From: an uncultured bacterium
GTDB taxonomy: Bacteria > Patescibacteriota > JABMPQ01 > CAVVCK01
NCBI GenBank assembly: GCA_963746775.1
Contig: CAVVCK010000001.1
Span: 19,050-83,049, forward strand
Length of the DNA stretch: 64,000 bases
Reading direction: 5' to 3'
Of the stretch, positions 38,756 through 50,518 are shown piece by piece. The translations under genes and the position numbers were made by a program. Numbering within the stretch: the first letter of the stretch is position 1; the number at the start of each line of letters is the position of its first letter. The notes below the pieces were generated by a model that saw only the letters and a list, made by a program, of their open reading frames with translations, was not told the DNA's origin and did no database searches.

Positions 38756-38780
38756 GATTTATTTACCTGGCTTTAGTCAG
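38756..38780. repeat. REP-A element copy (GATTTATTTACCTGGCTTTAGTCAG; palindromic core ctgRctttagYcag)
   Basis: Matches the copies at 39386-39489, 40868-40926 and 48143-48165, the last in opposite orientation. Confidence 0.65.
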
Positions 38781-39307
38781 CTCTTACCAGTTTTAAACTT
38801 AGAGCTATCTTCTAAATCTAATTTTATAACATTTTTAACTATTTCCACAGTAAATTCAAGTCCATGTTCTCTAACAGCTTGTGAAAAACTAGAATATGGC
38901 GATTTATTTAATTCGCTAAAATCCTGCACTTCTTTATATTTTAGCAAATTACCAATAATATATCCCCAAACATTATAGAACATTCTTTCTTCTAAAATAA
39001 TTTTTGTCCAATAATTATCCCATATCCTACGATTTATGCCATCTATTTTGTTTAACACAAATGAACTTCCACCGTTTATTACCCTGATAATATCTTTTAA
39101 CCTATTTTTATCTTCTAAATAAAATAATAAGTGATAATGATCATAAGCTATACTATAAGCATAGATAGAAATCTTAAATTTATTTTTTATATTATTTAAC
39201 TGCTTTAAAATAATATTTTTCTTTTTATTAGTATTAAAATATTTCTCATGATTAAAAGTTGGTGTGGTTAAAAAATAGTAAGAATTATTTAGAATAACTC
39301 GTGGCAT
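38777..39307 (-). mobile_element. IS200/IS605-like Y1 (HuH) transposase, REP-associated tyrosine transposase type (RAYT-1)
   Basis: HuH motif DHYHLLFYL. Downstream region with Tyr-containing WDNYWTKII. 176 aa. Flanked on both sides by REP-A palindromes. Confidence 0.6.
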
Positions 39308-39320
39308 ACAATTTTAATAT

Positions 39321-39489
39321 CCGGCTAAAGCCGGGGAAATTACTTTTTTAAAAATTCATTAAAGCGATTTGTTTTATATAAAAATGATTTATTCACCTGA
39401 CTTTAGTCAGCCTATTCTTAAAAGTGATTTATTTACCTAACTTTAGTCAGCCTATTCTTAAAAGTGATTTATTTACCTGACTTTAGTCA
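39321..39489. repeat. REP-A cluster: hairpin ccggctaaagccgg plus 3 tandem ~39-bp units
   Basis: Units at 39386-39410, 39425-39449 and 39465-39489 (gatttattYacctRactttagtcag), each followed by the identical cctattcttaaaagt. Confidence 0.7.
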
Positions 39490-39590
39490 GTTATTTTATT
39501 ATACCAAATAACCATATACCTACACAAAATCTATTTTTCTGTTAAAATATTAGCATAATTAGTATTAATTAGTATATTAGCATCGACCCA

Positions 39591-40811
39591 ATGAAAATCC
39601 TCCTAGCCAATAAATTCTACTATCTAAAAGGCGGAGCCGAACGCCACTTATTTGATTTGAAAGAATTATTAGAAGAAAACGGTCACAAGACTATTCCTTT
39701 TGCTATGCAGGATAATAAAAACGTCAACTCATCTTATTCTAAATATTTGGTAAGCCCGGTTAATTTAGAAAAATCTAGCTTTTCTCTGGAAGGAATAAAA
39801 GCAGCCGGACGAATAATTTATTCTTTTGAAGCTAGATCAAAAATGGAGGATCTAATTAAGACCGAAAAACCTGATATAGCCCATATTCATAATATTTATC
39901 ATCAAATTTCGCCTTCTATTCTAACTCCGCTCAAAAAAGCAGGTATTCCTATTGTAATGACCGTCCATGATTTTAAATTGATGTGCCCTAATTATATTTT
40001 TTATACCCAAAATAGGGTTTGTGAGCGCTGCAAAAAATATAAATACTATAATTGTGTAATCCACAAATGTGTTAAAGATTCTTATGCAGCCAGCAAGATT
40101 AATATGCTAGAAATGTATTATCACAGATTTTTAAAGATTTATAAAAATAATATTGATTTATATATTACACCCAGCCAATTTGTCAAAGACAAACTTATAG
40201 AATTTGGCTTTAATAGAAATAAAATTGAAGTTTTACCTCATTTTATAAAACAAGAACAAATTATTGAACAAAACAATTATTCAGAAAATTATATCTTATA
40301 TTTTGGCCGCCTTTCTAAAGAAAAAGGACCAGTAGTTTTATTAAAAGCAATGCAAAAGGTTAAAAATATAAAATTAAAATTAGCTGGCACAGGACCGCAA
40401 GAAAAAGAATTAAAGGATTATGTACAAAAAAATAATATGGATAATGTTGAATTCTTGGGATATTTAAAAGGTGAAAAGCTTAAAGAAGCTATTCTAAATT
40501 CCCTTTTTGTAATTATGCCCTCGGTATTTTATGAGACTTTTGGTCTAACTGTGCTAGAATCTTATACCTATGGAAAATCTGTTATAGCCTCTAATATAGG
40601 TGCTCTGCCAGAATTAGTACAAGAAGGTAAAACTGGCCTATTGTTTGAAAGTGGTAACAGTGATAACTTAGCTCAAAAAATTAATAAAATGCTTCAAAGT
40701 AGAGAAAAAATAGAAAATATGGGAAGTATGGGAAAAGAATTTAGTAAGAAATTTAATAGAGATGATTATTATGAGAAAATAAAGGAAATTTATAAGAGAA
40801 TAACCGGCTAA
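39591..40811 (+). CDS. GT4-family glycosyltransferase
   Basis: C-terminal ETFGLTVLESYTYGKSVIASNIGALPE GT-B motif. Flanked by REP-A clusters. Confidence 0.75.
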   Translation: MKILLANKFYYLKGGAERHLFDLKELLEENGHKTIPFAMQDNKNVNSSYSKYLVSPVNLEKSSFSLEGIKAAGRIIYSFEARSKMEDLIKTEKPDIAHIHNIYHQISPSILTPLKKAGIPIVMTVHDFKLMCPNYIFYTQNRVCERCKKYKYYNCVIHKCVKDSYAASKINMLEMYYHRFLKIYKNNIDLYITPSQFVKDKLIEFGFNRNKIEVLPHFIKQEQIIEQNNYSENYILYFGRLSKEKGPVVLLKAMQKVKNIKLKLAGTGPQEKELKDYVQKNNMDNVEFLGYLKGEKLKEAILNSLFVIMPSVFYETFGLTVLESYTYGKSVIASNIGALPELVQEGKTGLLFESGNSDNLAQKINKMLQSREKIENMGSMGKEFSKKFNRDDYYEKIKEIYKRITG

Positions 40812-40926
40812 AGCCGGGAAAATAACTTTTTAAAACTTACTAATACAACTTACTTAATATAAAAAGTAATTTATTTACCTGGCTTTAGTCAGATTAAAAA
40901 TGTTTTATTGGCCTGGCTTTAGCCAG
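40804..40926. repeat. REP-A cluster (ccggctaaagccgg; aatttatttacctggctttagtcag; cctggctttagccagc)
   Basis: Three palindromic copies of the same family, immediately 3' of the glycosyltransferase. Confidence 0.65.
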
Positions 40927-40951
40927 CTTTTTATTTATTATTTCTAAAAAA

Positions 40952-40976
40952 ATAGCCCCATCAGGGCTATTTTATA
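40952..40976 (+). terminator. Rho-independent terminator
   Basis: Stem atagccc/gggctat with loop catca, followed by a T-rich tail. Confidence 0.55.
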
Positions 40977-41063
40977 TTGAAACTAATTATATTAATTGGG
41001 AAGCCCACTTTCAAACGCTAATCCAGGACGGATCAACTAGGTGGGCAATTTTTCGGTAGGTTA

Positions 41064-41810
41064 TTACTCACGAGAGATGGGCGGGGTGTGCGGGGTCCAG
41101 CAGATGGAATAGCAGCCCCGATATTCCCTCTCATCGAAGCGTGGTTGTGCCAAGTATCCCTCAATTCCGCTGGAAAGACCAGCCTCCCATTCCTCGCAAG
41201 TAGGGGTTGGAGTCTCAAAATCCCAGCAGTCACCCTCGAACAACAGGGCGACGCCAGTCACGTATTCCAGAGGGCATTCACATGTTCCCGAAAACGCGAA
41301 ACCTCTCCAACCAGGCTCACTATGAGACTCATCGTCCCAAGGAAACCCGGCCAGACGGTCCCAGTCTTCACATTGTGCCTCTGAGGAAGAATCGCAGATG
41401 GGCAAATCGCTATCGGAGTCAGTGTCGTCATCAAAGTCGAAATCAGAATCGGCGTCACCGTCCGTGTCTCCGTCTACATCACCGCCACCATCTCCATCGC
41501 TATCCAAATCAGAGTCGCTGTCGGAGTCACCATCACCATCCACTTCCATATCACTGTCCGAGTCCGTATCACCGTCAGAATCACTGCCTCCATCGCTATC
41601 CATATCTCCGTCAATATCCGAGTCGCTATCGGAGTCAACATCGCTATCGCTGTCTACGTCTCCATCGACATCGCTATCGACATCCGCATCCGCATCTGCA
41701 TCATTATTTCGTGATGCATGTCCACATGCTGCCACGACCGAAGCCGCGACAACCAACATGGTCAAAAACACTACGCCCCAAAGGGCCTTCTCTTGCTGAT
41801 GCTTTCGCAT
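41064..41810 (-). CDS. GC-rich secreted lipoprotein A: conserved leader, poly-Asp/Ser/Gly acidic repeat, C-terminal 6-Cys domain
   Basis: The probable start is the second Met (41810), with RBS gaggaggaaggg upstream. Signal peptide plus lipobox (VVAACG). Repeats (DSDVDGDVDSDSD)n. The Cys-rich C-terminal domain is paralogous to that of 43142..43894. About 53% GC by eye. Confidence 0.5.
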   Translation of the reverse strand: MRKHQQEKALWGVVFLTMLVVAASVVAACGHASRNNDADADADVDSDVDGDVDSDSDVDSDSDSDIDGDMDSDGGSDSDGDTDSDSDMEVDGDGDSDSDSDLDSDGDGGGDVDGDTDGDADSDFDFDDDTDSDSDLPICDSSSEAQCEDWDRLAGFPWDDESHSEPGWRGFAFSGTCECPLEYVTGVALLFEGDCWDFETPTPTCEEWEAGLSSGIEGYLAQPRFDEREYRGCYSICWTPHTPPISRE

Positions 41811-41944
41811 CCCTTCCTCCTCAGCCCCGGAGGGCTTCATCTATAACCTACTACGAAAAGATAAAGAGCTTTCCATAGTAATTTAAGCCTTAATTTATTA
41901 TAAAATAACGATTTAAAGCCTAAATTCCTACTTTAAGATATTAA

Positions 41945-41973
41945 ATTGTGTCAATTTATAATATATTTGTCAA
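41945..41973 (-). promoter_or_regulatory. Minus-strand sigma70-like promoter of lipoprotein A (conserved module TATTGACAAATAT)
   Basis: On the minus strand: TTGACA (41968-41973), a 17-bp spacer, then CACAAT (41945-41950). The -35 module is the same as at 44063 and 46119. Confidence 0.4.
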
Positions 41974-42015
41974 TATTTTTAAGTGCTCTATATTTTAGTT
42001 CACTACTATTATAGC

Positions 42016-42747
42016 CTAAATATCCTCATCACTATAATCCAATATAGGATAATCCTCGAAACTAGAATTTATCCATTCTCTCCCCTTTTTCCTAATCCAA
42101 GTATTAAAGCTAGAAAAATTATAAAGATTTAGTTCTTCTATATTTTTTACTTTTTTGTGTTTAATAGAGTTGTTATGTATATAGTTGAAATGCTTATAGA
42201 AATCTTCTTCATCGCGAATGCAATGGTCCCAATATTGATACCATATTTTACGTTTTGAAGTATTATTTATTTTATTTAAAATCCTGGAACTATCTTTATG
42301 TATTTTTCTAATAAATTCTACTAGTTGATATTTAGACGCGAAATTCGTTTCACTCATTTCGCTATTCCTTAATTCATCACCTCTAGGATTAGCAAATTGA
42401 CTGGCCTGCCCGCCGGAGAGGCGGGAAGGAAATTTGCGTTCTGCAGCTGACGCGAAATTCACTCCGTTCATTTCGCTATTCCTTAAATCACTTTCTTTAG
42501 GATTAGCAAATTGAGCGAAGCGAAATTTGCGCTTTATATGAAATAATAAATGATAATGATTATCCATTATTACCCAAGCATAGATTTTTATATTAAATCT
42601 TTGAATAGATTTAATTAGTACGCTTTTTAATACTTCTTTTCTATTATCAGTATTAAAATAACAAATCTCTTCGTGCGTTCTAGAAGTTAAAAAATAAATC
42701 TGATTATCTCTATAAATATGTGGCGGACGATGTTTTTCTTTTGGCAT
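42016..42747 (-). mobile_element. IS200-like HuH tyrosine transposase (RAYT-2) carrying an in-frame insertion of its own REP-B palindromes
   Basis: HuH motif DNHYHLLFH. C-terminal WYQYWDHCIRDEEDFYKHFNYIHNN is RAYT-like. A roughly 70-aa segment (aa 72-140, nt 42328-42534) is encoded by two tandem REP-B units (FAQFANP appears twice). Possibly a pseudogene. Confidence 0.55.
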
Positions 42748-42756
42748 ATTTTTGTT

Positions 42757-42960
42757 TTTAGGATTAGCAAATTAAGTATAACAAAATTTGTGCTCTTTAA
42801 AATTACTAGGATTAGCAAATTGAGCTATTTATCCGCCAAAGAGGAGGAATGCGAAATTTGCGCTTTGTAAATTACCAGGATTAGCAAATTGACTGGAAGG
42901 AAATTTGCGCTACGTGTAGTAAGCGCGAAATTCCCCATTAGGGTCATTTCGCTAGTCCTG
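42757..42960. repeat. REP-B array: 3 units of AGGATTAGCAAATTGA...GGAAATTTGCGCT
   Basis: Palindromic arms GCAAATT/AATTTGC. Further copies at 42330-42545 (2 units), 45955-46070, and cores at 7205 and 36735. Confidence 0.65.
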
Positions 42961-43141
42961 ATTTTATTATTATATCAAAAAAACAGCCTATTTGCTGCTT
43001 ATGTGAAATGCTTAACTAATTGATGTGGAATTGTGAGCCCGCGTAAGATTGGATGTCTCTTACGCGGGTGTTCAAGAATGAACATGGGCTCCAGCTACCC
43101 GGGGTTACACTGGATTTTGGTAGGATTCGTTTTTTTGACGA

Positions 43142-43894
43142 CTAGAACCACTCGGGGTGGCAGTCACCGCCAGGGGGGAGGTCGCAGTAGGCGACGTTCA
43201 AGCACTCCCCGCCGGTCCTGCCGAGTGCCCGTTCCCCAGCGATCGCGTCCACCGACCCGTACGCAGCCTCAGCTTCGACGCAAGCGTCTCCGCTGTCTCC
43301 AGGACCCCAGTTCGTCGGAACCCAACATCCGTCGGGGAAACGGATAATGATCTGGGTTCCACCGGGAGTGACCTCGACAGCACCGGGACACCCTCCCCAA
43401 GCACCTGCTGCCCGCGGATGATCGAAAGCTTGACATTGCGAAATGTCGGCTTCCTCACACATGGGCTCGGGCTCGATCGGGGTCGTATCACCGTCGGAAT
43501 CGCCATCGCTGTCGGAGTCCGCGTCGCCGTCGCCGCCGTTGAGGTTGTTCTCGACGTTGACGTCGACATCGACGTTCACGTCGATCTCGGCACAATCCGC
43601 GACCCCGTTGCCGTCCTCGTCGGCGAAGCCCTCGTCGATCTGCCCGTCGCAGTCGTCGTCGATGTTGTTGCAAATCTCCGGAGCGCCGGGATAGACCGAG
43701 GGGTTGCTGTCGTTGCAGTCGCGGCCACCGTCGCCGACGGCCTCGAAGCTGTCCTGGTCGAGATCGTACACGTACGTCTCGATCGTATCCGGCCCGCAGC
43801 CGGTGTTGAAGGTCACCACGACCAGAAGGGTCGCGATGAGCGTTGCGGTTTCGATCAACTTGCCCCGAAGGGCCTTCTCGTGATGCTCTTGCAT
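43142..43894 (-). CDS. GC-rich secreted lipoprotein B: conserved leader, MopE-like Cys-rich metal-binding motif, acidic repeat, 6-Cys C-terminal domain
   Basis: Leader MQEHHEKALRG, compared with A's MRKHQQEKALWG. Lipobox FNTGCG. Motif RDCNDSNPSVYPGAPEICNNIDDDCDGQIDE. (DVNVDVDV)(DGDADSDSDGDSDGD) repeats. C-terminus aligns with A. About 65% GC by eye. Confidence 0.55.
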   Translation of the reverse strand: MQEHHEKALRGKLIETATLIATLLVVVTFNTGCGPDTIETYVYDLDQDSFEAVGDGGRDCNDSNPSVYPGAPEICNNIDDDCDGQIDEGFADEDGNGVADCAEIDVNVDVDVNVENNLNGGDGDADSDSDGDSDGDTTPIEPEPMCEEADISQCQAFDHPRAAGAWGGCPGAVEVTPGGTQIIIRFPDGCWVPTNWGPGDSGDACVEAEAAYGSVDAIAGERALGRTGGECLNVAYCDLPPGGDCHPEWF

Positions 43895-44044
43895 CTCTCT
43901 TCTCCTTGCGGCCCCTTGGGTCCGCCTTGTTTCCTCAAAAAAATCCTAGAAGGTACACCTTAAATTATTATTTATAATATTTTAAGGTGTAACTTCATTT
44001 AATTGCTATTTTTAAAGTACTACACTATTTTATTTTAACACTAT

Positions 44045-44073
44045 ATTATATCACTTTTTACTATATTTGTCAA
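44045..44073 (-). promoter_or_regulatory. Minus-strand consensus sigma70 promoter of lipoprotein B
   Basis: On the minus strand: TTGACA (44068-44073), a 17-bp spacer, then TATAAT (44045-44050). Confidence 0.55.
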
Positions 44074-44291
44074 TAGATTTCTTAATAATTCTTTATACCA
44101 GATACTAGCTTCTAAATACTATATTCTTGCCTTTTAGCAGCTCATATTTAGCATAAATCCCCTCCCTTATTATCTTGTTCTTGTGTTATCTTGTTATTTT
44201 GATTTAAGGAGGGTATTTTGCGTCAGCACAAGTATGATCTTTTTAATTTGATCAACTGTGCTGACGCAGGTGGGATTTTTGAGGTGGGAAA

Positions 44292-44624
44292 TTACCGGTG
44301 AGTGACAACCGTATGGTCGCCGTCAGACGCCTCCACGGCGCCCCATGTGCCGAGACCGACACCGGCACCGAGAGCTACGCTCCCGAAGCCGATGAGCAGC
44401 CCACAGGCCACTCGGTTCCGGTGACACCAGTCCGGCTGGGTTTCCACGGTCGTCGGACCTTCCACGTCGTCGGGAAGGGGGGTCGAGGTGACCTCGCCGT
44501 CCTCGTCCAGACCAAACTGAACGGGACGATCCTCGCGCACCACCTGAAAGGTGGACACGCCGCAACCGACCGAGCCGAACACCACGACCATCGCGATCGC
44601 CGCCAACTTCGTCATGTCTCTCAT
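44292..44624 (-). CDS. GC-rich small lipoprotein C
   Basis: Likely start MRDMTKL, with RBS aaggagaaggaaag upstream. Signal peptide plus lipobox FGSVGCG. About 60% GC by eye. The first Met at 44696 is less likely. Confidence 0.4.
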   Translation of the reverse strand: MRDMTKLAAIAMVVVFGSVGCGVSTFQVVREDRPVQFGLDEDGEVTSTPLPDDVEGPTTVETQPDWCHRNRVACGLLIGFGSVALGAGVGLGTWGAVEASDGDHTVVTHR

Positions 44625-44974
44625 CTTTCCTTCTCCTTCGTTCCTTGACCCTGCCATGACCCCCCTCTTTCTCAAGAGGAGGTCGGTTATGACCACCCTA
44701 AGGGGGGCCGTGTTTCCTTACCTCAAAATGTGAAATGTACTAACCTTGAAGGTATACCTAGAATTATTATATTTATAACAACTTAAGGCATAACTTCCCT
44801 TGTTCGCCGAAGCCTAATGGCGTAGGCGGATATTTTCTTCCTAATCTCTACTCCCTACTAACTACTAACTACTCACTAATAAAGAATTGGAAGCACCCGC
44901 GCATCAGTAGACATGGTAGGAACGAACCGAAGTTCGTCTATGTCATACTATAATGATGCGCGGGGCTTTTGAGG

Positions 44975-45655
44975 CTAGGGGCAGACTCGAGTATGCTGAC
45001 CACCGAAGTGAGTCAGCTCGATGCACCGTCGTCCGCGAGGACGGGGCGGCGCTTCTGCCACCTTCGTGGGGGTGGGGGGAACGGTGGGCTCCTCGGCGAC
45101 CGGGGTGGGCGGATTCGGCAGCCTTGGCGCAGGAGGCGTCTTGTTCGGGCTTGGGGCCTTCGCATGATCGTCCTCGTCGCAGTCGCCGCACTCTTCGATA
45201 CGGGTCAGAATTTCTTCCGCCCGGTCATCGATGTGTCCATTGACCGCTCCGACTCCTCTGTCGACCTCACTCGAGACGTGACCCTTGATGTCCGTCGCGA
45301 CACCGTCGGTGTGGGAATTGACGGCGTTGACCGTCTTTCCCAACTCCGACCGGAGCTGACCGAGGGTCACGCCGGTCGGCTGTCCCTTGACGGGTGCCGG
45401 CGCGGGGTTCGTCGGCGGGGGCGGCCGGTCGGGGGTCAGCGTGTTGTCCGCCTCCTGCGCTTCCGCGTCGCCACCGAACAGCCCGAGGGCCCAAGCTCCT
45501 CCGAATCCAAGCCCCACCAGAAGCACAACCATTACGATCGCCCACTTCCAGTGGGTCCTCACGTTGGCCGCGGCCCTGCGGATGCGCCCGGGCTGCGGTT
45601 CTTCGGTCACCGTCTCTGTCTCGGTCCCTTCTTCGGTCCCTGTCTCGTCGGCCAT
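44975..45655 (-). CDS. GC-rich single-pass membrane protein D with Pro-rich extracytoplasmic region (anti-sigma-factor-like topology)
   Basis: RBS aaaggagg. Acidic N-terminus. TM helix WAIVMVVLLVGLGFGGAWALGLF. Pro-rich segments PDRPPPPTNPAPAP and PPAPRLPNPPTP. Confidence 0.4.
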   Translation of the reverse strand: MADETGTEEGTETETVTEEPQPGRIRRAAANVRTHWKWAIVMVVLLVGLGFGGAWALGLFGGDAEAQEADNTLTPDRPPPPTNPAPAPVKGQPTGVTLGQLRSELGKTVNAVNSHTDGVATDIKGHVSSEVDRGVGAVNGHIDDRAEEILTRIEECGDCDEDDHAKAPSPNKTPPAPRLPNPPTPVAEEPTVPPTPTKVAEAPPRPRGRRCIELTHFGGQHTRVCP

Positions 45656-45954
45656 TTCTGGCCTCCTTTCTTTCTATCGTTTCCAACAATGAACTTCCAT
45701 CTTTCTTTCGATTGATTGAAGTCCGCGATTTTAAGAAACAATATTTATATTATTCCCTAAAAGCGAAACTCCAACCGTGTCCGCCAAAGCCTAATGGCGT
45801 AGGCGGATTTTTCATATAGCCTCAATTTATAAAATGTGCTCTCTTTAAAAAACAAATATCGTTTTATTAATCTTTCTTAATTAAGCTTTATTTGTCTTTT
45901 AATTATATGGATTTTAATGTGCAAGTTCTCACTAGCTCATTTCCTTAATCCTTA

Positions 45955-46070
45955 TCCCAGGATTAGCAAATTGACTGGCTTGCCCGCCGTCAGAGGCGGG
46001 AAGGAAATTTGCGTTTCGTACAGTAGGCGCGAAATTCGCTTCACTCATTTCGCTATTCCTTGATTCCAAA
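45955..46070. repeat. REP-B composite unit (isolated copy)
   Basis: caggattagcaaattgactggcttgcccgccgtcagaggcgggaaggaaatttgcg...gcgaaattcgcttcactcatttcgc matches the units at 42330-42545. Confidence 0.6.
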
Positions 46071-46100
46071 TTCCTAATTCCGTATTTTCAATAACACCGC

Positions 46101-46129
46101 AGTATAGCATATTGTAACATATTTGTCAA
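46101..46129 (-). promoter_or_regulatory. Minus-strand sigma70-like promoter upstream of protein D
   Basis: On the minus strand: TTGACA (46124-46129), a 17-bp spacer, then TATACT (46101-46106). Confidence 0.45.
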
Positions 46130-46430
46130 TACTATTTACCCACCTTTTTATATACTAAAAACAAGGCTTTTTTTGGGCTTAAATTAGACTACTCCAGATT
46201 AGACTTTTCTAAAAACATTGTTTTTATATAAAATATCTTTTTGCAAAATATTCGTAACAGCCTTACGGCTGTTAATCTTGATAATATTATTTTTTAGGAC
46301 TACCACTCGTAATGATGTTATTGTTTTAATAAAATTCTACATTCTAATGGATTTTTGCCCGCGCCAGAACTTATTAAGTTAAGACGCGGGCTATGAGATG
46401 CAGCGAACTAGTCGCTGCTTTGAGGTAGGA

Positions 46431-47420
46431 TCATGGAGGTGCTGCCCGGTAGGCTATCCCTATCTTGTCTTGCACCACGGCTTGACCGAGGTGCTCTGGA
46501 GTATCAGGTGGAATTTCTGAAATGTACGTATTCCACCCTGCTCCACAGACCGATAGGAAGAGATAGCGATCTCCCCTGCCGCGCAGCTCAGCGTACTGCC
46601 AGCCTCTCCATTGCCCCCGGCTTATCAACTGCCCAGGGATAAATGTCGGACTGACGTCTTCGCCAAAAACTGCTACGCAGGAGAAATACTCACTTCTCCA
46701 CCAAAGCCCCCGACCCCTACGGAAAATATTATCTACCGAGCCTTGATAGGTGGGGCTTTTCAACACCAGATTCCGTGGAGGTGGCGAACGCGGCTCAATC
46801 CGCTTGGAAGCCTGCTTTTTCGCCTTTGTCGCCTGAATCGGCCGACGCACCACCTTGCTGTGCGACAAACCCAGAGACTGAAACCACGGAGAAGGAGAAG
46901 GCACAGAAATCCAAATAATATAACCCAAACCAGCCAAAATCGATACTAGGCAAAAACCGACGAAAACACGCAATTTCCAAGGCGAGGGCTGCCAGCCCAT
47001 ATAATCAATCTCGATTTCTTTTTCAGAAGAGTCATCTTCACTATCTGAATCAGAACCAGTCTTGACGTCGCCATGGTCTTCTTCAAAATCAGCACTATTG
47101 ACACTCTCTTCCGGAGAGCTACCATCACTCTGATTTTCCGAGTTGGCTCCCCCCTTGCCATCTTGACTTTCTCCAATCCCGATTATTGACTTCCAAGTTA
47201 AATCCTCGGGGTCAATTCCGGAATATCCCGGCACTGTGCTATCCCCTCTCAGGGGACTTTCCGAACATATTCTCACAGAACGGGGAGGCTCCGGCGGCCT
47301 TAAGATATGACGAGAAGGAGGAACAAGCCCCCTTAACTCAGACATACAATATCCACAATTCGTACAAAAAGCATATTCTACCTCATGTCCACACTTCGGA
47401 CACTTTTTCATCTCACTCAT
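46431..47420 (-). CDS. Zinc-ribbon membrane protein E
   Basis: N-terminal zinc ribbon CPKCGHEVEYAFCTNCGYC. Acidic S/D/E segment. One TM helix VFVGFCLVSILAGLGYIIWISV. C-terminal domain of unknown function. About 50% GC by eye. Confidence 0.4.
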   Translation of the reverse strand: MSEMKKCPKCGHEVEYAFCTNCGYCMSELRGLVPPSRHILRPPEPPRSVRICSESPLRGDSTVPGYSGIDPEDLTWKSIIGIGESQDGKGGANSENQSDGSSPEESVNSADFEEDHGDVKTGSDSDSEDDSSEKEIEIDYMGWQPSPWKLRVFVGFCLVSILAGLGYIIWISVPSPSPWFQSLGLSHSKVVRRPIQATKAKKQASKRIEPRSPPPRNLVLKSPTYQGSVDNIFRRGRGLWWRSEYFSCVAVFGEDVSPTFIPGQLISRGQWRGWQYAELRGRGDRYLFLSVCGAGWNTYISEIPPDTPEHLGQAVVQDKIGIAYRAAPP

Positions 47421-47883
47421 GACTATCCCCTTCCCATCTCCATGGAGGTTTTGTTGTTTGCAAATTAATAAAAATACCTAATTATTCACAATAAGCTGCA
47501 AACAACTTTTTTACTCACCAATTCCAATTCTACATTATAAATTATACATTTTGCATTCATTTATCTACCTCAATTTTAAAAAAGAACGCTCTTATCCTAT
47601 GACATATAACCAAAGTCTTCGAATACATACACCTTTTACTTTAAATTAAAGAATAAAAATTTTATTCAAAAATGTTTAATAACTTTTGACTAAGGCTGTA
47701 TTTTTAAGATAAAAGAACATTATATTTAATCATAAAATAATAATATGTCAAACCCAAAAAGGTTAAAAACAGCTGTCTATTTAAAATCTTATAAAATTTA
47801 AAAAACGGTGGATAATTTATCTTTGATTCAAATTAAATTTTACATTAAAATAATAAGCACCTCTAAAAAATAACTACAAAAAA

Positions 47884-48138
47884 ATGGTACAAAATAAAAA
47901 GAAAACTAAGCAAAAAACTCAAAAAGAAATAGCTCTAGAATTAATAAAATTAATGCCCGATAGCATTGAATGGAGTGATATAAACAGTATTTTCTATGAG
48001 AAAGGAAGATTAGAGAAAACATTGAATGATGCTTTTGAAAAAGGAATTTTAACTAAAAAAGAAGCCCTGAAGCGCTATAATATGTTAGATAAGACAATAA
48101 TTACCGATTGGCTTAAAAATAAGTATGGTTTTGAATAA
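47884..48138 (+). CDS. Small hypothetical protein (84 aa)
   Basis: The ORF has native AT-rich codon usage. No recognisable domain. Confidence 0.3.
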   Translation: MVQNKKKTKQKTQKEIALELIKLMPDSIEWSDINSIFYEKGRLEKTLNDAFEKGILTKKEALKRYNMLDKTIITDWLKNKYGFE

Positions 48139-48298
48139 GAAGCTGGCTAAAGCCAGGTAAATAAAAACACTTTTTACCACGTACGAAATTTCAAGAATAC
48201 TTATAAAATTTTACATAATCCACAAAATTTCGTACGTGGTTTACTAAAAATAAAAAATGTGCTAACTTATAAATATTATACAAAAATAATCAATTTCT

Positions 48299-48691
48299 AT
48301 GGATAAGGAATTAAAAAACGAATTTGAAAAAATTAATAAACATTTCGAAAAAGTTGACAAGCGATTTGATAAAATAAATTCTCAAATTGAAATTTTAGCC
48401 GCTACTATTAATAACGATGTAGCTAAAAAAGAAGATTTAGAAAATTTAGAGAAAAAAATGGACACTGGCTTTGAAAAAATGAATAAAAAATTTAAAGATC
48501 TAGAAGAAAATGTAAACGACATATCTGCTAAAGTACAAATACAAAAAAACGTCCCCATTATTAGAAAAGTTAATGAGAAAGTAAACAAACATATTGAAAT
48601 TCATGAAAAAAGAGGAAATATAACTAAAGAAGATATAGCTGTAATTAGTAAAATTAATCCCTTCCCAAGCAAAGAAGCTCTAGCCCAATAA
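48299..48691 (+). CDS. Hypothetical coiled-coil protein (130 aa)
   Basis: Heptad-like K/E-rich sequence. The ORF is followed by a clear terminator. Confidence 0.35.
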   Translation: MDKELKNEFEKINKHFEKVDKRFDKINSQIEILAATINNDVAKKEDLENLEKKMDTGFEKMNKKFKDLEENVNDISAKVQIQKNVPIIRKVNEKVNKHIEIHEKRGNITKEDIAVISKINPFPSKEALAQ

Positions 48692-48703
48692 TAATTTCTA
48701 TAA

Positions 48704-48741
48704 AACCTACTTGAAAGATAAATTTATAAGTAGGTTTTTTT
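48704..48741 (+). terminator. Rho-independent terminator
   Basis: 9-bp stem aacctactt/aagtaggtt followed by TTTTTT. Confidence 0.7.
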
Positions 48742-48834
48742 AATTGTAAGGTATATAAATAATTTAATCCCCTATAAAAGCAAAACAGACCGGGCGGATG
48801 CCAGATCTGAACTCTAGGAAGGTGCAAAAAAGAA

Positions 48835-49242
48835 CTAATATTTCAACAACAAAAATCCAAAAATAGCTAAAATCAATAATGCAGTAATGATACCGGCGAT
48901 AGCCTTAATCCTGCCCTGTGCCATCCCGGGCACAATAATTTCCTCCTCTGAGAACTCTTCTTTCTTCATTGCCTCTTTAGTCTCATCATCATCAATAAAA
49001 ACATTTTCTTGTTGAGCTCCTTCCAGAAGCTCAAACCCCCGTTGGGTTGTCCTGGGATCCTCTACTGCTTTCAAAACAACCTTAGGGGCCATGCCATTAG
49101 GAGATTGTATTCTAGGAGTCGGCATCCCCATGGTGGTACCCATATGGGGGCGCTCTGGGAGAGCTTCTAATCTTTTTGGCTTTTCTCCTTTCTTTCCAAC
49201 GCCTTTACCGATAACCTTGATTGGCTTTCCATTAGAAGACAT
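48835..49242 (-). CDS. Hypothetical tail-anchored membrane protein (135 aa)
   Basis: A single C-terminal TM helix IAGIITALLILAIFGFLLL. No recognisable domain. Confidence 0.3.
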   Translation of the reverse strand: MSSNGKPIKVIGKGVGKKGEKPKRLEALPERPHMGTTMGMPTPRIQSPNGMAPKVVLKAVEDPRTTQRGFELLEGAQQENVFIDDDETKEAMKKEEFSEEEIIVPGMAQGRIKAIAGIITALLILAIFGFLLLKY

Positions 49243-49390
49243 GATTCCTCTCTTCTCCCCTTAGGGATTATGCGTGTTATTACAACATGCTATTACACCA
49301 TTTTGATATTAAAAAATCAATAAATTATATTAAATAATGACAATTTAATTAAATTTATATATTATAACAAGGACTTAATAAACTATAATT

Positions 49391-50518
49391 ATGATACACA
49401 ATTCATTACTTTTAACCAAATTCTTTCCGCCAGACAAAGGCGGTATCCAAAATTATTTATACAATATTTGTAAAAATTTAGAAAATAATAAAATATTTGT
49501 ATTAACGGAAAAAGAAGCTAAAAATAAAGAAGATTTTAAAATTTTTAGCTATAAAACAAAAAAAATATATTCATATTTAAACTTAAGCTTTTTGCCTGTC
49601 CTCCTTGAAGCTTCAAAAATAATAAAAAATAATAATATAGAAAATCTACTTTTAGGCCATTTCTATGTTCCCTACGCCCTATCTGCCCTAATTTTAAAAA
49701 AATTTAAAAAAATACCCTATACCATATTCACTCACGGATTAGAAATATTAGAAACAAAAAATAGCCGTAAAACGGATTATATTCTAAAGCTCTGTTTTAA
49801 AAATGCTCAAAATATTATTGTTACGACAGATTATTTAAAAAGAGAAATTATTAATAAATACCCCAATCTTAATTTAGATAAAAAAATAATAAAAATACCA
49901 CCCGGAGTTGATTCTGATTTTTTTAAACCTAATTTGGACATATCAAATTTAAGAAAATATCATAACCTGGAAGATAAAAAAATAATCTTTACCTGCGGAA
50001 GATTGGTTAAAAGAAAAAATCATCAGCTCATCATAAAAGCTCTGCCAGAAATTATAGAAAAAGTTCCTAATATTATTTATTTAATTGGAGGAGTGGGCCC
50101 CGAGGAAGAAAACTTAAAAAAACAAGTAATCACGCTTAATCTGGAAAATAACATAAAATTCCTAGGAGAAGTTAAAAATAAAGATTTGCCCCTATTTTAC
50201 AATTTAGCTGACATCTTCTGCATGCCTTCTACCTACAATAAAGAAAAAGGCGATGTTGAAGGCTTTGGCTTAGTCTTTATAGAAGCGCAGGCCTGTGAAA
50301 CTCCCACTATAGGTTCAAATACAGGAGGCATCCCTGATGCTATTATTAATAATATAGATGGATACCTTATAAATCCAGACTCAAGCCAAGAATTAGCTCA
50401 AAAAGTTATAGAGCTATTATTGAACAACAATTTAGCTCAACAATTTGGAAGAGCTGGCAGAGAGAAAGTTGTAAGAGAGCATAATTGGAGCAAGTTAGTT
50501 AAGAAGTTACCACGGTGA
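49391..50518 (+). CDS. GT4-family glycosyltransferase
   Basis: C-terminal EGFGLVFIEAQACETPTIGSNTGGIPD GT-B motif. Confidence 0.75.
   Translation: MIHNSLLLTKFFPPDKGGIQNYLYNICKNLENNKIFVLTEKEAKNKEDFKIFSYKTKKIYSYLNLSFLPVLLEASKIIKNNNIENLLLGHFYVPYALSALILKKFKKIPYTIFTHGLEILETKNSRKTDYILKLCFKNAQNIIVTTDYLKREIINKYPNLNLDKKIIKIPPGVDSDFFKPNLDISNLRKYHNLEDKKIIFTCGRLVKRKNHQLIIKALPEIIEKVPNIIYLIGGVGPEEENLKKQVITLNLENNIKFLGEVKNKDLPLFYNLADIFCMPSTYNKEKGDVEGFGLVFIEAQACETPTIGSNTGGIPDAIINNIDGYLINPDSSQELAQKVIELLLNNNLAQQFGRAGREKVVREHNWSKLVKKLPR

Follow-up and report, generated by a model that had tools for sequence, protein, structure and literature searches.

Genes A and B of an uncultured Patescibacteria bacterium: probable old duplicates within a very small family of putative surface lipoproteins

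Patescibacteria are believed to spend their lives on the cells of a host, and very few of their surface molecules are known. In the mycoplasma Vsp, Vlp and Vsa systems, lipoprotein paralogues have a 5′ region and a signal peptide that are conserved in nucleotides, together with a repetitive and variable mature part; elements of mRNA that occlude the ribosome-binding site (RBS) or the start codon, e.g., RNA thermometers, also exist. The Ser–Asp (SD) repeats of staphylococcal surface proteins have the role of a stalk and are glycosylated by SdgA and SdgB, as reported (PMC8561734, PMC9881980). The present analysis concerns two genes, A and B, found in a stretch of 64,000 nt (hereafter, the window; contig CAVVCK010000001.1, at least 547 kb long, of assembly GCA_963746775.1, positions 19,050 to 83,049) from an uncultured Paceibacteria-like bacterium of the Patescibacteria. 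These genes probably arose by an ancient duplication within a very small family of cell-surface lipoproteins that is restricted to one lineage, and their paralogy, as proposed in the initial annotation of the window, was borne out through bridging proteins and profile tests, not by direct comparison. As tangible candidates for attachment proteins, the products of A and B, in each of which an anchor, an acidic stalk and a Cys-rich head are proposed, would form a very rare pair. The main features of both genes, and the gene lying between them, are listed below in window coordinates (GC3 denotes GC content at third codon positions).

41064..41810, minus strand: gene A, 248-aa lipoprotein (open reading frame (ORF) list; GC 0.54, GC3 0.51)
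41724..41810, minus strand: signal peptide of A with the canonical lipobox VAAC (Cys29), passing the PS51257-like and strict patterns
41406..41708, minus strand: acidic Asp/Ser/Gly array of A, aa 35–135, degenerate and of low complexity
41067..41405, minus strand: C-terminal Cys-rich domain of A, aa 136–248, with eight Cys, six of them family-invariant
43142..43894, minus strand: gene B (= P0001), 250-aa probable lipoprotein (ORF list; GC 0.63, GC3 0.77)
43796..43894, minus strand: signal peptide of B with Cys33 in the atypical lipobox NTGC, failing both patterns (N at −3)
43631..43720, minus strand: MopE-type Cys motif of B, aa 59–88 (PF11617, 49.3 bits compared with a cut-off of 27, E = 5.8 × 10−13)
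43487..43588, minus strand: short acidic arrays of B, (DVNV)n followed by DGDADSDSDGDSDGD, aa 103–136
43145..43468, minus strand: C-terminal domain of B, aa 143–250, a diverged six-Cys copy (profile search)
42016..42747, minus strand: AT-rich gene of a REP-associated tyrosine transposase (RAYT) between B and A (Pfam Y1_Tnp; NCBIfam NF047646, 86.5 bits compared with a cut-off of 80)

In layout, A and B resemble the staphylococcal Sdr/Clf adhesins, in which a low-complexity array, long and rich in Asp and Ser, likewise separates the anchor from a globular binding part. In the NCBIfam comparison, aa 37–145 of A aligned to the SD-repeat regions of SdrD, SdrC, ClfA and ClfB (E-values of 1 × 10−13 to 1 × 10−15), with scores far below the cut-offs (48–56 bits compared with 999–2500); the repeat region alone aligned, which places A outside the MSCRAMM Sdr/Clf family. 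The polarity also differs, since A and B have an N-terminal lipid anchor and a C-terminal head, whereas Sdr/Clf proteins have a C-terminal LPXTG and an N-terminal A domain. In A, neither a matching A-domain hit nor, by inspection, an LPXTG motif was found (the protein ends in ...WTPHTPPISRE), and the repeats of A and B are mixtures of DSD, DGD and DVD, not strict SD dipeptides. The A/B locus is adjoined by GT4 glycosyltransferase genes, which recalls the reported glycosylation of the staphylococcal SD repeats by SdgA and SdgB (PMC8561734). The stalked surface-lipoprotein architecture is already known in kind, whereas the family is very rare and its head domain is new. With the mycoplasma Vsp/Vlp/Vsa systems, A and B share a conserved 5′ end and signal peptide, a variable repetitive part, and a small-genome, AT-rich, surface-dependent host. 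The differences are that A and B are only two genes per locus, in direct orientation, with their own promoter-like sites and imperfect repeats; that no invertible element, invertase or simple-sequence tract in the promoter accompanies them, the adjacent recombinase being RAYT and no inverted repeats flanking either promoter-like site; and that their conserved Cys-rich C-terminus is lacking in Vsp/Vlp/Vsa.

The coordinates and the minus-strand location of both genes in the initial annotation were correct, and the purine-rich RBSs it described are present at both A and B. The ORF containing A spans 41064–41840; its true start is the ATG at 41810, because the Shine–Dalgarno sequence GAGGAGGAAGGG lies directly 5′ of it and the orthologue in the related genome L003 has no upstream ATG. 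This start is conserved in the orthologues L003:11878 and L090:68. A signal peptide and lipobox had been assigned to both proteins. Signal peptides are indeed present in both, and the lipobox of A, as well as those of its orthologues, passes the patterns used (a charged N-region, a hydrophobic core, and [LVI][ASTVI][GAS]C or a PS51257-type pattern within approximately the first 40 residues), but the NTGC of B fails them. The hydrophobic core of B is present, and its Cys with the following GPD (GC|GPD) aligns with those of the L003 orthologue and of a B-type relative from L089, both of which pass the patterns (LVGC and LSGC, respectively); the L005 copy fails.

In the initial annotation, the C-termini of A and B were aligned with six conserved Cys, and comparison of the termini with shuffled controls was proposed. 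The N-terminal peptides passed such a comparison (z = 5, none of 2000 shuffles as good), but the C-termini did not (Smith–Waterman, z = 2.2, 67 of 2000 shuffles as good), and direct comparison of A with B by BLASTP was not significant (E = 3.6); the last two results speak against the kinship of the two proteins and made intermediates necessary. Two bridging proteins, P0002 (L005) and P0036 (L003), both from syntenic relatives, were found by searching with B. P0002 contains a B-like N-terminal half (MopE motif, DVNV and DGDADSD) fused to an A-like C-terminal domain, and its alignment with B extends from the signal peptide into the C-terminal domain (E = 4 × 10−28). P0036 combines the 5′ peptide of A and B with an A-like C-terminal domain; it aligns with B over the full length (E = 8 × 10−5) and with A over the C-terminal domain (E = 4 × 10−7). 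A profile of P0036 and P0002 matched A with 27 bits (E = 2.7 × 10−10) and, B having been left out of it, matched B with 12.9 bits (E = 6 × 10−6, none of 1000 shuffles as good). In an exhaustive profile search, aa 143–242 of P0001 were recovered with E = 8.3 × 10−19, B itself having been among the four sequences used to build the profile, and the A orthologue P0061 with E = 1.2 × 10−19; the window ORFs containing A and B gave 8.5 × 10−37 and 1.7 × 10−24, respectively, in a domain profile search in which both were part of the profile. The six Cys stood: an alignment of nine members (A, B, P0036, P0002 and P0060–P0064) contained exactly six invariant Cys plus Q11, W33 and P45, so that the invariants of this domain of approximately 100 aa are C4, Q11-C12, W33, C44-P45, C60, C70 and C98 (numbering of the domain of A). 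This family-defining domain is covered by no Pfam or NCBIfam model, and no structural match to it was found. In A, it had a nonsynonymous divergence (dN) of 0.22 while the synonymous divergence (dS) was saturated, which indicates that the putative head is under purifying selection.

Further family members, a search for which elsewhere in the genome had been proposed, were found in related genomes. Among 1.84 billion cluster representatives, the exhaustive profile search yielded 10 hits, and eight of these were convincing: P0061 and P0062 of the A type; P0001, P0036, P0002, P0063 and P0064 of the B type; and P0060. P0059, considered as a length variant of P0002, was rejected as merely a longer start call. 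The domain occurs exactly twice at each locus. The window, L003 and L005 each have one copy of the A type and one of the B type, in syntenic positions on the two sides of a shared RAYT gene, and the duplication is consequently older than the split of the three genomes. Judging from these sequences, A and B are old, diverged duplicates of a very small, lineage-restricted family. No family member was found in the GTDB species genomes. Neither the 5′ module pattern described below nor the domain was matched in viral contigs, so that there is no sign of phage origin, or in JGI metagenome contigs, where the scan was not exhaustive, since P0060, itself from a JGI sample, was missed too. A word-index search returned nothing with the C-terminal domain of A and P0063 alone with the nine-member profile, which reflects a limit of the index, since the exhaustive search did recover the family. 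Exact look-ups gave a match for a 258-aa call of A and for the GT4 next to it, but not for the 248-aa A or for B.

P0060 is a lipoprotein-like protein of 725 aa encoded by a gene at 1275–3452 of L088 (JGI 3300037483 contig); it has two six-Cys domains and MopE motifs, and its N-terminal part has a weak glycoside-hydrolase-like similarity. Its contig has a GC content of 0.51 and GC-rich flanks, and it is the only member found outside an AT-rich Patescibacteria context; it may point to a donor or to a second host lineage.

According to the proposed working of the two proteins, the N-terminal Cys would be lipidated and would hold A and B in the membrane; the acidic array would form an extended stalk, possibly Ca2+-binding or glycosylated, similar to the SD-repeat stalk of the Sdr/Clf adhesins; and the disulfide-bonded C-terminal domain would be a distal head touching a ligand, plausibly on the host cell of the presumed episymbiont. 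The scheme is supported by the purifying selection on the putative head. Several points weigh against it. The lipobox of B is atypical, with N at −3, and the roles of stalk and head are drawn by analogy. Three GT4 genes flank the GC-rich island in which A and B lie; they may simply be part of a glycan locus instead, given that Wzz and radical SAM genes are located nearby.

The start regions of A and B had been described as nearly identical at the nucleotide level, which proved accurate: in repeat family D18, positions 41775–41798 pair with 43862–43885 (88% over 24 nt), and within the 64 kb AAGGCCCTNNGGGGC occurs exactly at these two genes only, while allowing up to two mismatches adds the upstream hairpin of A (three hits compared with 0.4 expected). 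It is unusual for a start-region element to be preserved to the base in paralogues whose kinship is otherwise barely discernible. The two blocks are located as follows.

41775..41836, minus strand: 5′ module of A (hairpin 1, 41823–41836; Shine–Dalgarno sequence, 41811–41822; AUG hairpin, 41798–41811; hairpin 3, 41775–41787)
43862..43925, minus strand: 5′ module of B (hairpin 1, 43908–43925; Shine–Dalgarno sequence; AUG hairpin, 43882–43895; hairpin 3, 43862–43874)

Alignment of five sequences (A, B and three orthologues from L003 and L090) revealed 26 invariant columns out of 37 from the G before the ATG to +36, compared with 4 of the next 38. The module consists of hairpin 1 (GCCC-N4-GGGC, longer in the B type), the Shine–Dalgarno sequence, a 5-bp hairpin G-AUGC-N4-GCAU-C that includes the start codon, and hairpin 3 (GGCCC-N4-GGGC); as a DNA pattern, its core is GATGC-N4-GCATC...AAGGCCCT-NN-GGGGC. 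The AUG hairpin and hairpin 3 are GAUGC-GAAA-GCAUC and GGCCC-UUUG-GGGC in A and GAUGC-AAGA-GCAUC and GGCCC-UUCG-GGGC in B; the local hairpin energies are −7 to −10 kcal/mol in A, and the range across the sequences is −6.4 to −12.3 kcal/mol. The stems are invariant in all five sequences, including the synonymous third positions of GCC (Ala), GGC (Gly) and CAT (His), whereas third positions in loops or unpaired sites vary (CGA/CGC/CGG/CAA, CAG/CAT/CAA/CAC, CTT/CTC and T/C/A-GG). The loops of the AUG hairpin are GAAA, GCGA, AAGA and GGAA, those of hairpin 3 are UUUG, UCCG, UUAG and UUCG, and changes in them lead to the replacements K/E, R/Q and R/W. Invariant stems with variable loops thus account for the odd conservation of the peptide M-x-x-H ... 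KAL-x-G. Since the 4-fold degenerate sites in the rest of A have reached saturation even among orthologues (identity of 0.33 compared with 0.29 expected), the block appears to be constrained as nucleic acid, and the shared element most likely acts in the mRNA. There, it would form a GC hairpin, the Shine–Dalgarno sequence, the 5-bp hairpin containing the AUG, and a second GC hairpin; in an alternative form, the outer two hairpins would pair with each other and enclose the Shine–Dalgarno sequence and the AUG. RNAalifold retained the AUG hairpin in five of five sequences and preferred the long-range form, with hairpins 1 and 3 paired around both signals. In either form, the block would probably throttle or co-regulate translation initiation or mRNA stability of both paralogues. 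It resembles the known RBS-occluding elements in its short stable hairpins around the Shine–Dalgarno sequence and the AUG, one stem of which contains the start codon, and in the possibility of long-range pairing that encloses the RBS. It differs from them in that the Shine–Dalgarno sequence is unpaired in the local-hairpin fold and that Rfam gave no match: only tRNAs reached the gathering score, and nothing relevant was obtained at E ≤ 1 in 40800–49500.

A role in the mRNA is challenged by the scarcity of covariation, since the stems never vary: one compensatory change was found, in hairpin 1 between B and the L003 B-type orthologue (GCGG/CCGC compared with GUGG/CCAC), and the RNAalifold covariation term was unfavourable (+1.68). 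In addition, the module is absent from both L005 copies and is therefore not essential to the family. The block could instead act as DNA, i.e., as palindromic operators of a dimeric regulator (GCCC-N4-GGGC twice and ATGC-N4-GCAT), or as the N-region peptide M-R/Q-K/E-H-...-KAL-R/W-G in export. All three hairpins are perfect DNA palindromes, constraint on RNA and on DNA is indistinguishable where stems are invariant, and the block is situated at the extreme N-terminus of the signal peptide. These alternatives are nevertheless considered unlikely: charge-changing and radical replacements are tolerated exactly at the loop positions, the frozen synonymous stem positions do not fit a purely peptide constraint, the elements bracket the Shine–Dalgarno sequence and the AUG in the manner of translational control elements, and the L005 members are of the exported type yet lack the block.

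A and B are separate units: a promoter-like site of the sigma70 kind and a terminator-like hairpin belong to each gene individually, as follows.

41945..41973, minus strand: promoter-like site of A, TTGACA-17-CACAAT with TG (consensus scan 10/12; repeat family D5)
40945..40970, minus strand: terminator-like hairpin with a T-run after A, ATAGCCCTGATGGGGCTATTTTTTT (read from the sequence)
44045..44073, minus strand: promoter-like site of B, TTGACA-17-TATAAT with TG (consensus scan 12/12; repeat family D5)
42981..43000, minus strand: terminator-like hairpin after B (sequence scan)

The promoter-like arrangement of A recurs upstream of A-type genes in L003 and L005. A promoter-like block (TATTGACAAATAT...) is present in three copies, at 41942–41980 (upstream of A), 44042–44080 (upstream of B) and 46098–46136 (approximately 450 nt upstream of gene D, listed below), which suggests three transcription units with a common promoter type.

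The window has a GC content of approximately 30%, and the region of 41.0–49.3 kb is a string of GC-rich segments, each corresponding to one minus-strand gene. Besides A and B, this island includes four genes, the membrane topologies of which were read from the sequences by eye, no prediction tool being used.

44292..44624, minus strand: gene C, small lipoprotein with a C-terminal hydrophobic segment (GC3 0.77; orthologue L005:9270–9680)
44975..45655, minus strand: gene D, N-terminally anchored Pro-rich membrane protein (GC3 0.76; orthologues L003:8199–8837 and L005:8336–9001)
46431..47420, minus strand: gene E, protein with a weak N-terminal zinc-ribbon similarity (Pfam matches below threshold, E ~0.01) and a mid-protein hydrophobic segment (GC3 0.47; orthologue L003:6025–6861)
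48835..49242, minus strand: gene F, small protein with a C-terminal hydrophobic tail (GC3 0.41; orthologue L003:5267–5725)

The GC3 of A–F, six genes for membrane or surface proteins, ranges from 0.41 to 0.77, compared with 0.17–0.25 in all neighbours; the spacers between them are AT-rich, and the AT-rich RAYT gene (42016–42747) and a coiled-coil ORF (48299–48691, plus strand) are interleaved. This order of genes is shared by three related genomes (window 41000–49300, L003:5267–12615 and L005:5942–17616), and one syntenic relative is located on a contig of 1.05 Mb (ERZ1757541 contig_6554). Placement of the host follows from its nearest IleRS relatives in the GTDB species genomes, which are 60–66% identical and carry the labels Patescibacteria, Staskawiczbacteria, Wildermuthbacteria or Paceibacterota; no GC islands were found beside IleRS in these more distant relatives. 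Between the window and L003, the proteins of the flanking genes are 71–81% identical, their NG86 dS is at least 1.4 or undefined, and four of five genes have 4-fold identity at the saturation level, the identity of the gene GT4d being higher (0.50 compared with 0.30). Two RAYT genes, the second of which is located at 38777–39307, are less diverged (4-fold identity of 0.68–0.69; dS of 0.72 for the one between A and B). Among the island genes, A and E are saturated, and B and D nearly so (dS of 1.09 and 1.33, respectively), yet GC content at 4-fold sites (GC4) of 0.46–0.87 is retained in both lineages. The island proteins evolve 2–4 times faster than their neighbours (dN of 0.22–0.75 compared with 0.10–0.20), as is often seen in interaction proteins.

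A high GC content that has lasted across saturated synonymous divergence in a genome with 30% GC is unusual and is not predicted by simple amelioration. In a two-state decay estimate, for which we assumed an equilibrium GC3 of 0.2 and approximately 0.5 GC–AT exchanges per site per lineage, about one-fifth (~20%) of the initial GC3 excess is left, so that a starting GC3 of 1.0 would now be approximately 0.37, compared with the observed 0.7–0.77. On this estimate, the GC-richness would not be simply the fading trace of one ancient transfer, and selection, biased gene conversion or repeated replacement must apparently be involved. Parsimony polarisation of GC-to-AT and AT-to-GC changes was abandoned, because the result for an AT-rich control gene had the artefact to which parsimony is known to be prone at such a distance. 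Tentatively, and with clear reserve, the six-gene island may be regarded as a compositionally insulated compartment of surface proteins, in which GC-richness is actively maintained in an AT-rich reduced genome, either by selection on GC-rich structured mRNAs with shared control elements (the hairpin-bracketed RBS and AUG, and an anti-Shine–Dalgarno-like post-stop box pairing with the 5′ leader) or by GC-biased gene conversion at frequently recombining host-interaction genes. If so, it would lend itself naturally to the study of how selection or biased conversion shapes base composition in a reduced genome.

A quite unlikely alternative to active maintenance is that the lipoprotein block consists of recent xenologues from a GC-rich, Myxococcota-like donor that are decaying neutrally, with the 5′ block as a functionless leftover of the donor or of the duplication. 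The contrast in GC3 with the neighbours, the MopE-motif proteins labelled as Myxococcota, Polarisedimenticolia and others among the hits of B, and the GC-rich contig of P0060 are in line with such a transfer. It is opposed by the common order of the island genes, with AT-rich genes interspersed, in three genomes between which the flanking genes have a dS that is at least 1.4 or saturated, by the GC4 retained in both lineages by genes that are equally or nearly saturated, by the decay estimate under the above assumptions, by the AT-rich spacers, which are similar to the remaining genome, and by the conservation of the 5′ block far beyond what saturated synonymous sites allow.

The architecture of conserved ends around a variable modular middle, proposed in the initial annotation, was confirmed, as was the difference of the middles in length and composition: 101 aa in A (48% D, 18% S and 13% G) and 34 aa of DVNV/DGDADSD in B. 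The MopE motif of B had been overlooked. Cys-rich secreted proteins and lipoproteins with this motif (PF11617, a putative metal-binding motif) dominate the database matches of B, and B, P0002, P0062, P0060 and a 1079-aa neighbour in L005 score above its threshold; the family differs from them in that Pfam detected no such motif in A or in P0036 and that the six-Cys domain is outside any Pfam or NCBIfam model. Since B matches PF11617 and A does not, membership of the family does not depend on the motif, which is an optional module. P0036 has an Asp-rich stretch that, by eye, recalls thrombospondin type 3 repeats, and the A-type copy of L005 has two MopE motifs (in its near-identical twin P0062) and a DSD array.

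In the initial annotation, the repeats were further read as slippage-prone, i.e., A and B were considered phase- or size-variable surface antigens that change their unit number within populations. This reading was not supported by the sequences and is now regarded as very unlikely. It may draw on the likeness to Vsp/Vlp/Vsa in the conserved 5′ end and signal peptide with a variable repeat middle, on the variation of array lengths among orthologues (91–118 aa in the A type and 15–34 aa in the B type) and on the fast evolution of the island proteins. Tandem Repeats Finder (TRF), however, detected only short arrays in A and B, with periods of 6, 12 and 24, matches of 70–75% at the DNA level and scores of 30–60 (period 6 and 71–73% in B), so that the near-identical tandem units of a size-variable antigen are lacking. 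The longest exact DNA repeat is 15 nt in A, where the two copies are 96 nt apart and not tandem, and 8 nt in B. Nor do A and B resemble a simple-sequence contingency locus, which has a homopolymer or short perfect tandem tract in the promoter, leader or 5′ coding sequence: in their promoters, leaders and coding sequences, dinucleotide tracts are absent, and the only homopolymers are T7 in the leader of B and C6 near the 3′ end of the coding sequence of B. All unit lengths are multiples of three, and slippage would therefore alter the size of the proteins, not switch them on or off. Over the length of A, the single independent assembly that was available (Logan ERR11571143) matches the window with 100% identity. 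The gene number, direct orientation, separate promoter-like sites, absence of an invertase and presence of RAYT as the neighbouring recombinase, given above, also oppose variation of the mycoplasma type. The arrays probably change through ordinary substitutions and indels within low-complexity sequence and not through programmed slippage, and the spread of 91–118 aa in the A type is consistent with slow indel turnover in a linker. Repeats at the protein level alone are thus insufficient for calling repeat-rich surface genes phase-variable.

An assembly chimera, in which GC-rich fragments of another organism were joined into an AT-rich contig, has a negligible probability despite the abrupt GC steps (0.25 to 0.65), since ERR11571143 reproduces 39449–43672, including AT/GC junctions, with 100% identity, this mosaic recurs in samples of independent origin (ERZ1757541/ERR4921265, ERZ24794656/ERZ24794648 and SRR28370465), and the promoter-like sites of the GC-rich genes are AT-rich and of one common type.

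Several other elements were observed in and around the island. At its A-side edge, L005 (14377–17616, minus strand) and L006 (7039–10449, minus strand) contain an additional GC-rich lipoprotein-like gene (1079–1136 aa) with at least 10 MopE-type Cys repeats (PF11617, E = 1.2 × 10−48), which has no counterpart in the window. The RAYT gene between B and A, found in the same position in all three genomes, contains in-frame REP-like units, the window copy having one more unit of 114 nt (38 aa) than the L003 orthologue; REP-like repeats are located at 42335–42400, 42449–42514, 42757–42967 and 45959–46091, including the further copies just upstream of RAYT and in the leader upstream of D. A post-stop box, (C)CTACCTCAAA or, as a pattern, CCTACCTCAAA, with an anti-Shine–Dalgarno-like core directly follows the stop codons of A, C, D, E and several orthologues. 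In the window, these boxes (41050–41064, 44278–44288, 44970–44978 and 46419–46429) are complementary to boxes of 9–17 nt in the 5′ leaders of the same genes A, C, D and E (41843–41859, 44717–44727, ~45817–45825 and 47564–47574). RNAduplex, which permits long loops, was uninformative for the pairing of the flanks, and a local complementarity test was used instead; 4–20 of 300 shuffles per gene were as good, compared with 17–290 of 300 in AT-rich controls, and in L003 and L005 the complementarity was either less strong or missing. It could represent pairing of mRNA ends, a processing stem or cassette-like inverted repeats.

A conserved AT-rich hairpin GAAGTTAYRCCTTA...TAAGGYRTACCTTC is present in several island leaders (43949–43996 in B, with arms of 23 nt and 91% complementarity; ~44770–44815 in C; and upstream of 10058 in L003). 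Another hairpin, CCGCCTACGCCATTAGGCTTYGGCGG, occurs in two copies with 89% identity, upstream of C (44798–44835) and of D (45775–45812), and a similar CCGCC...GGCGG hairpin is located near 49440. Finally, short hairpins CTGGCTTTAGCCAG/CCGGCTTTAGCCGG are repeated in the intergenic regions at both edges of the island (40806–40935 and 48134–48166; inverted-repeat pairs I1, I2 and I7) and look like terminators or REP-type elements.

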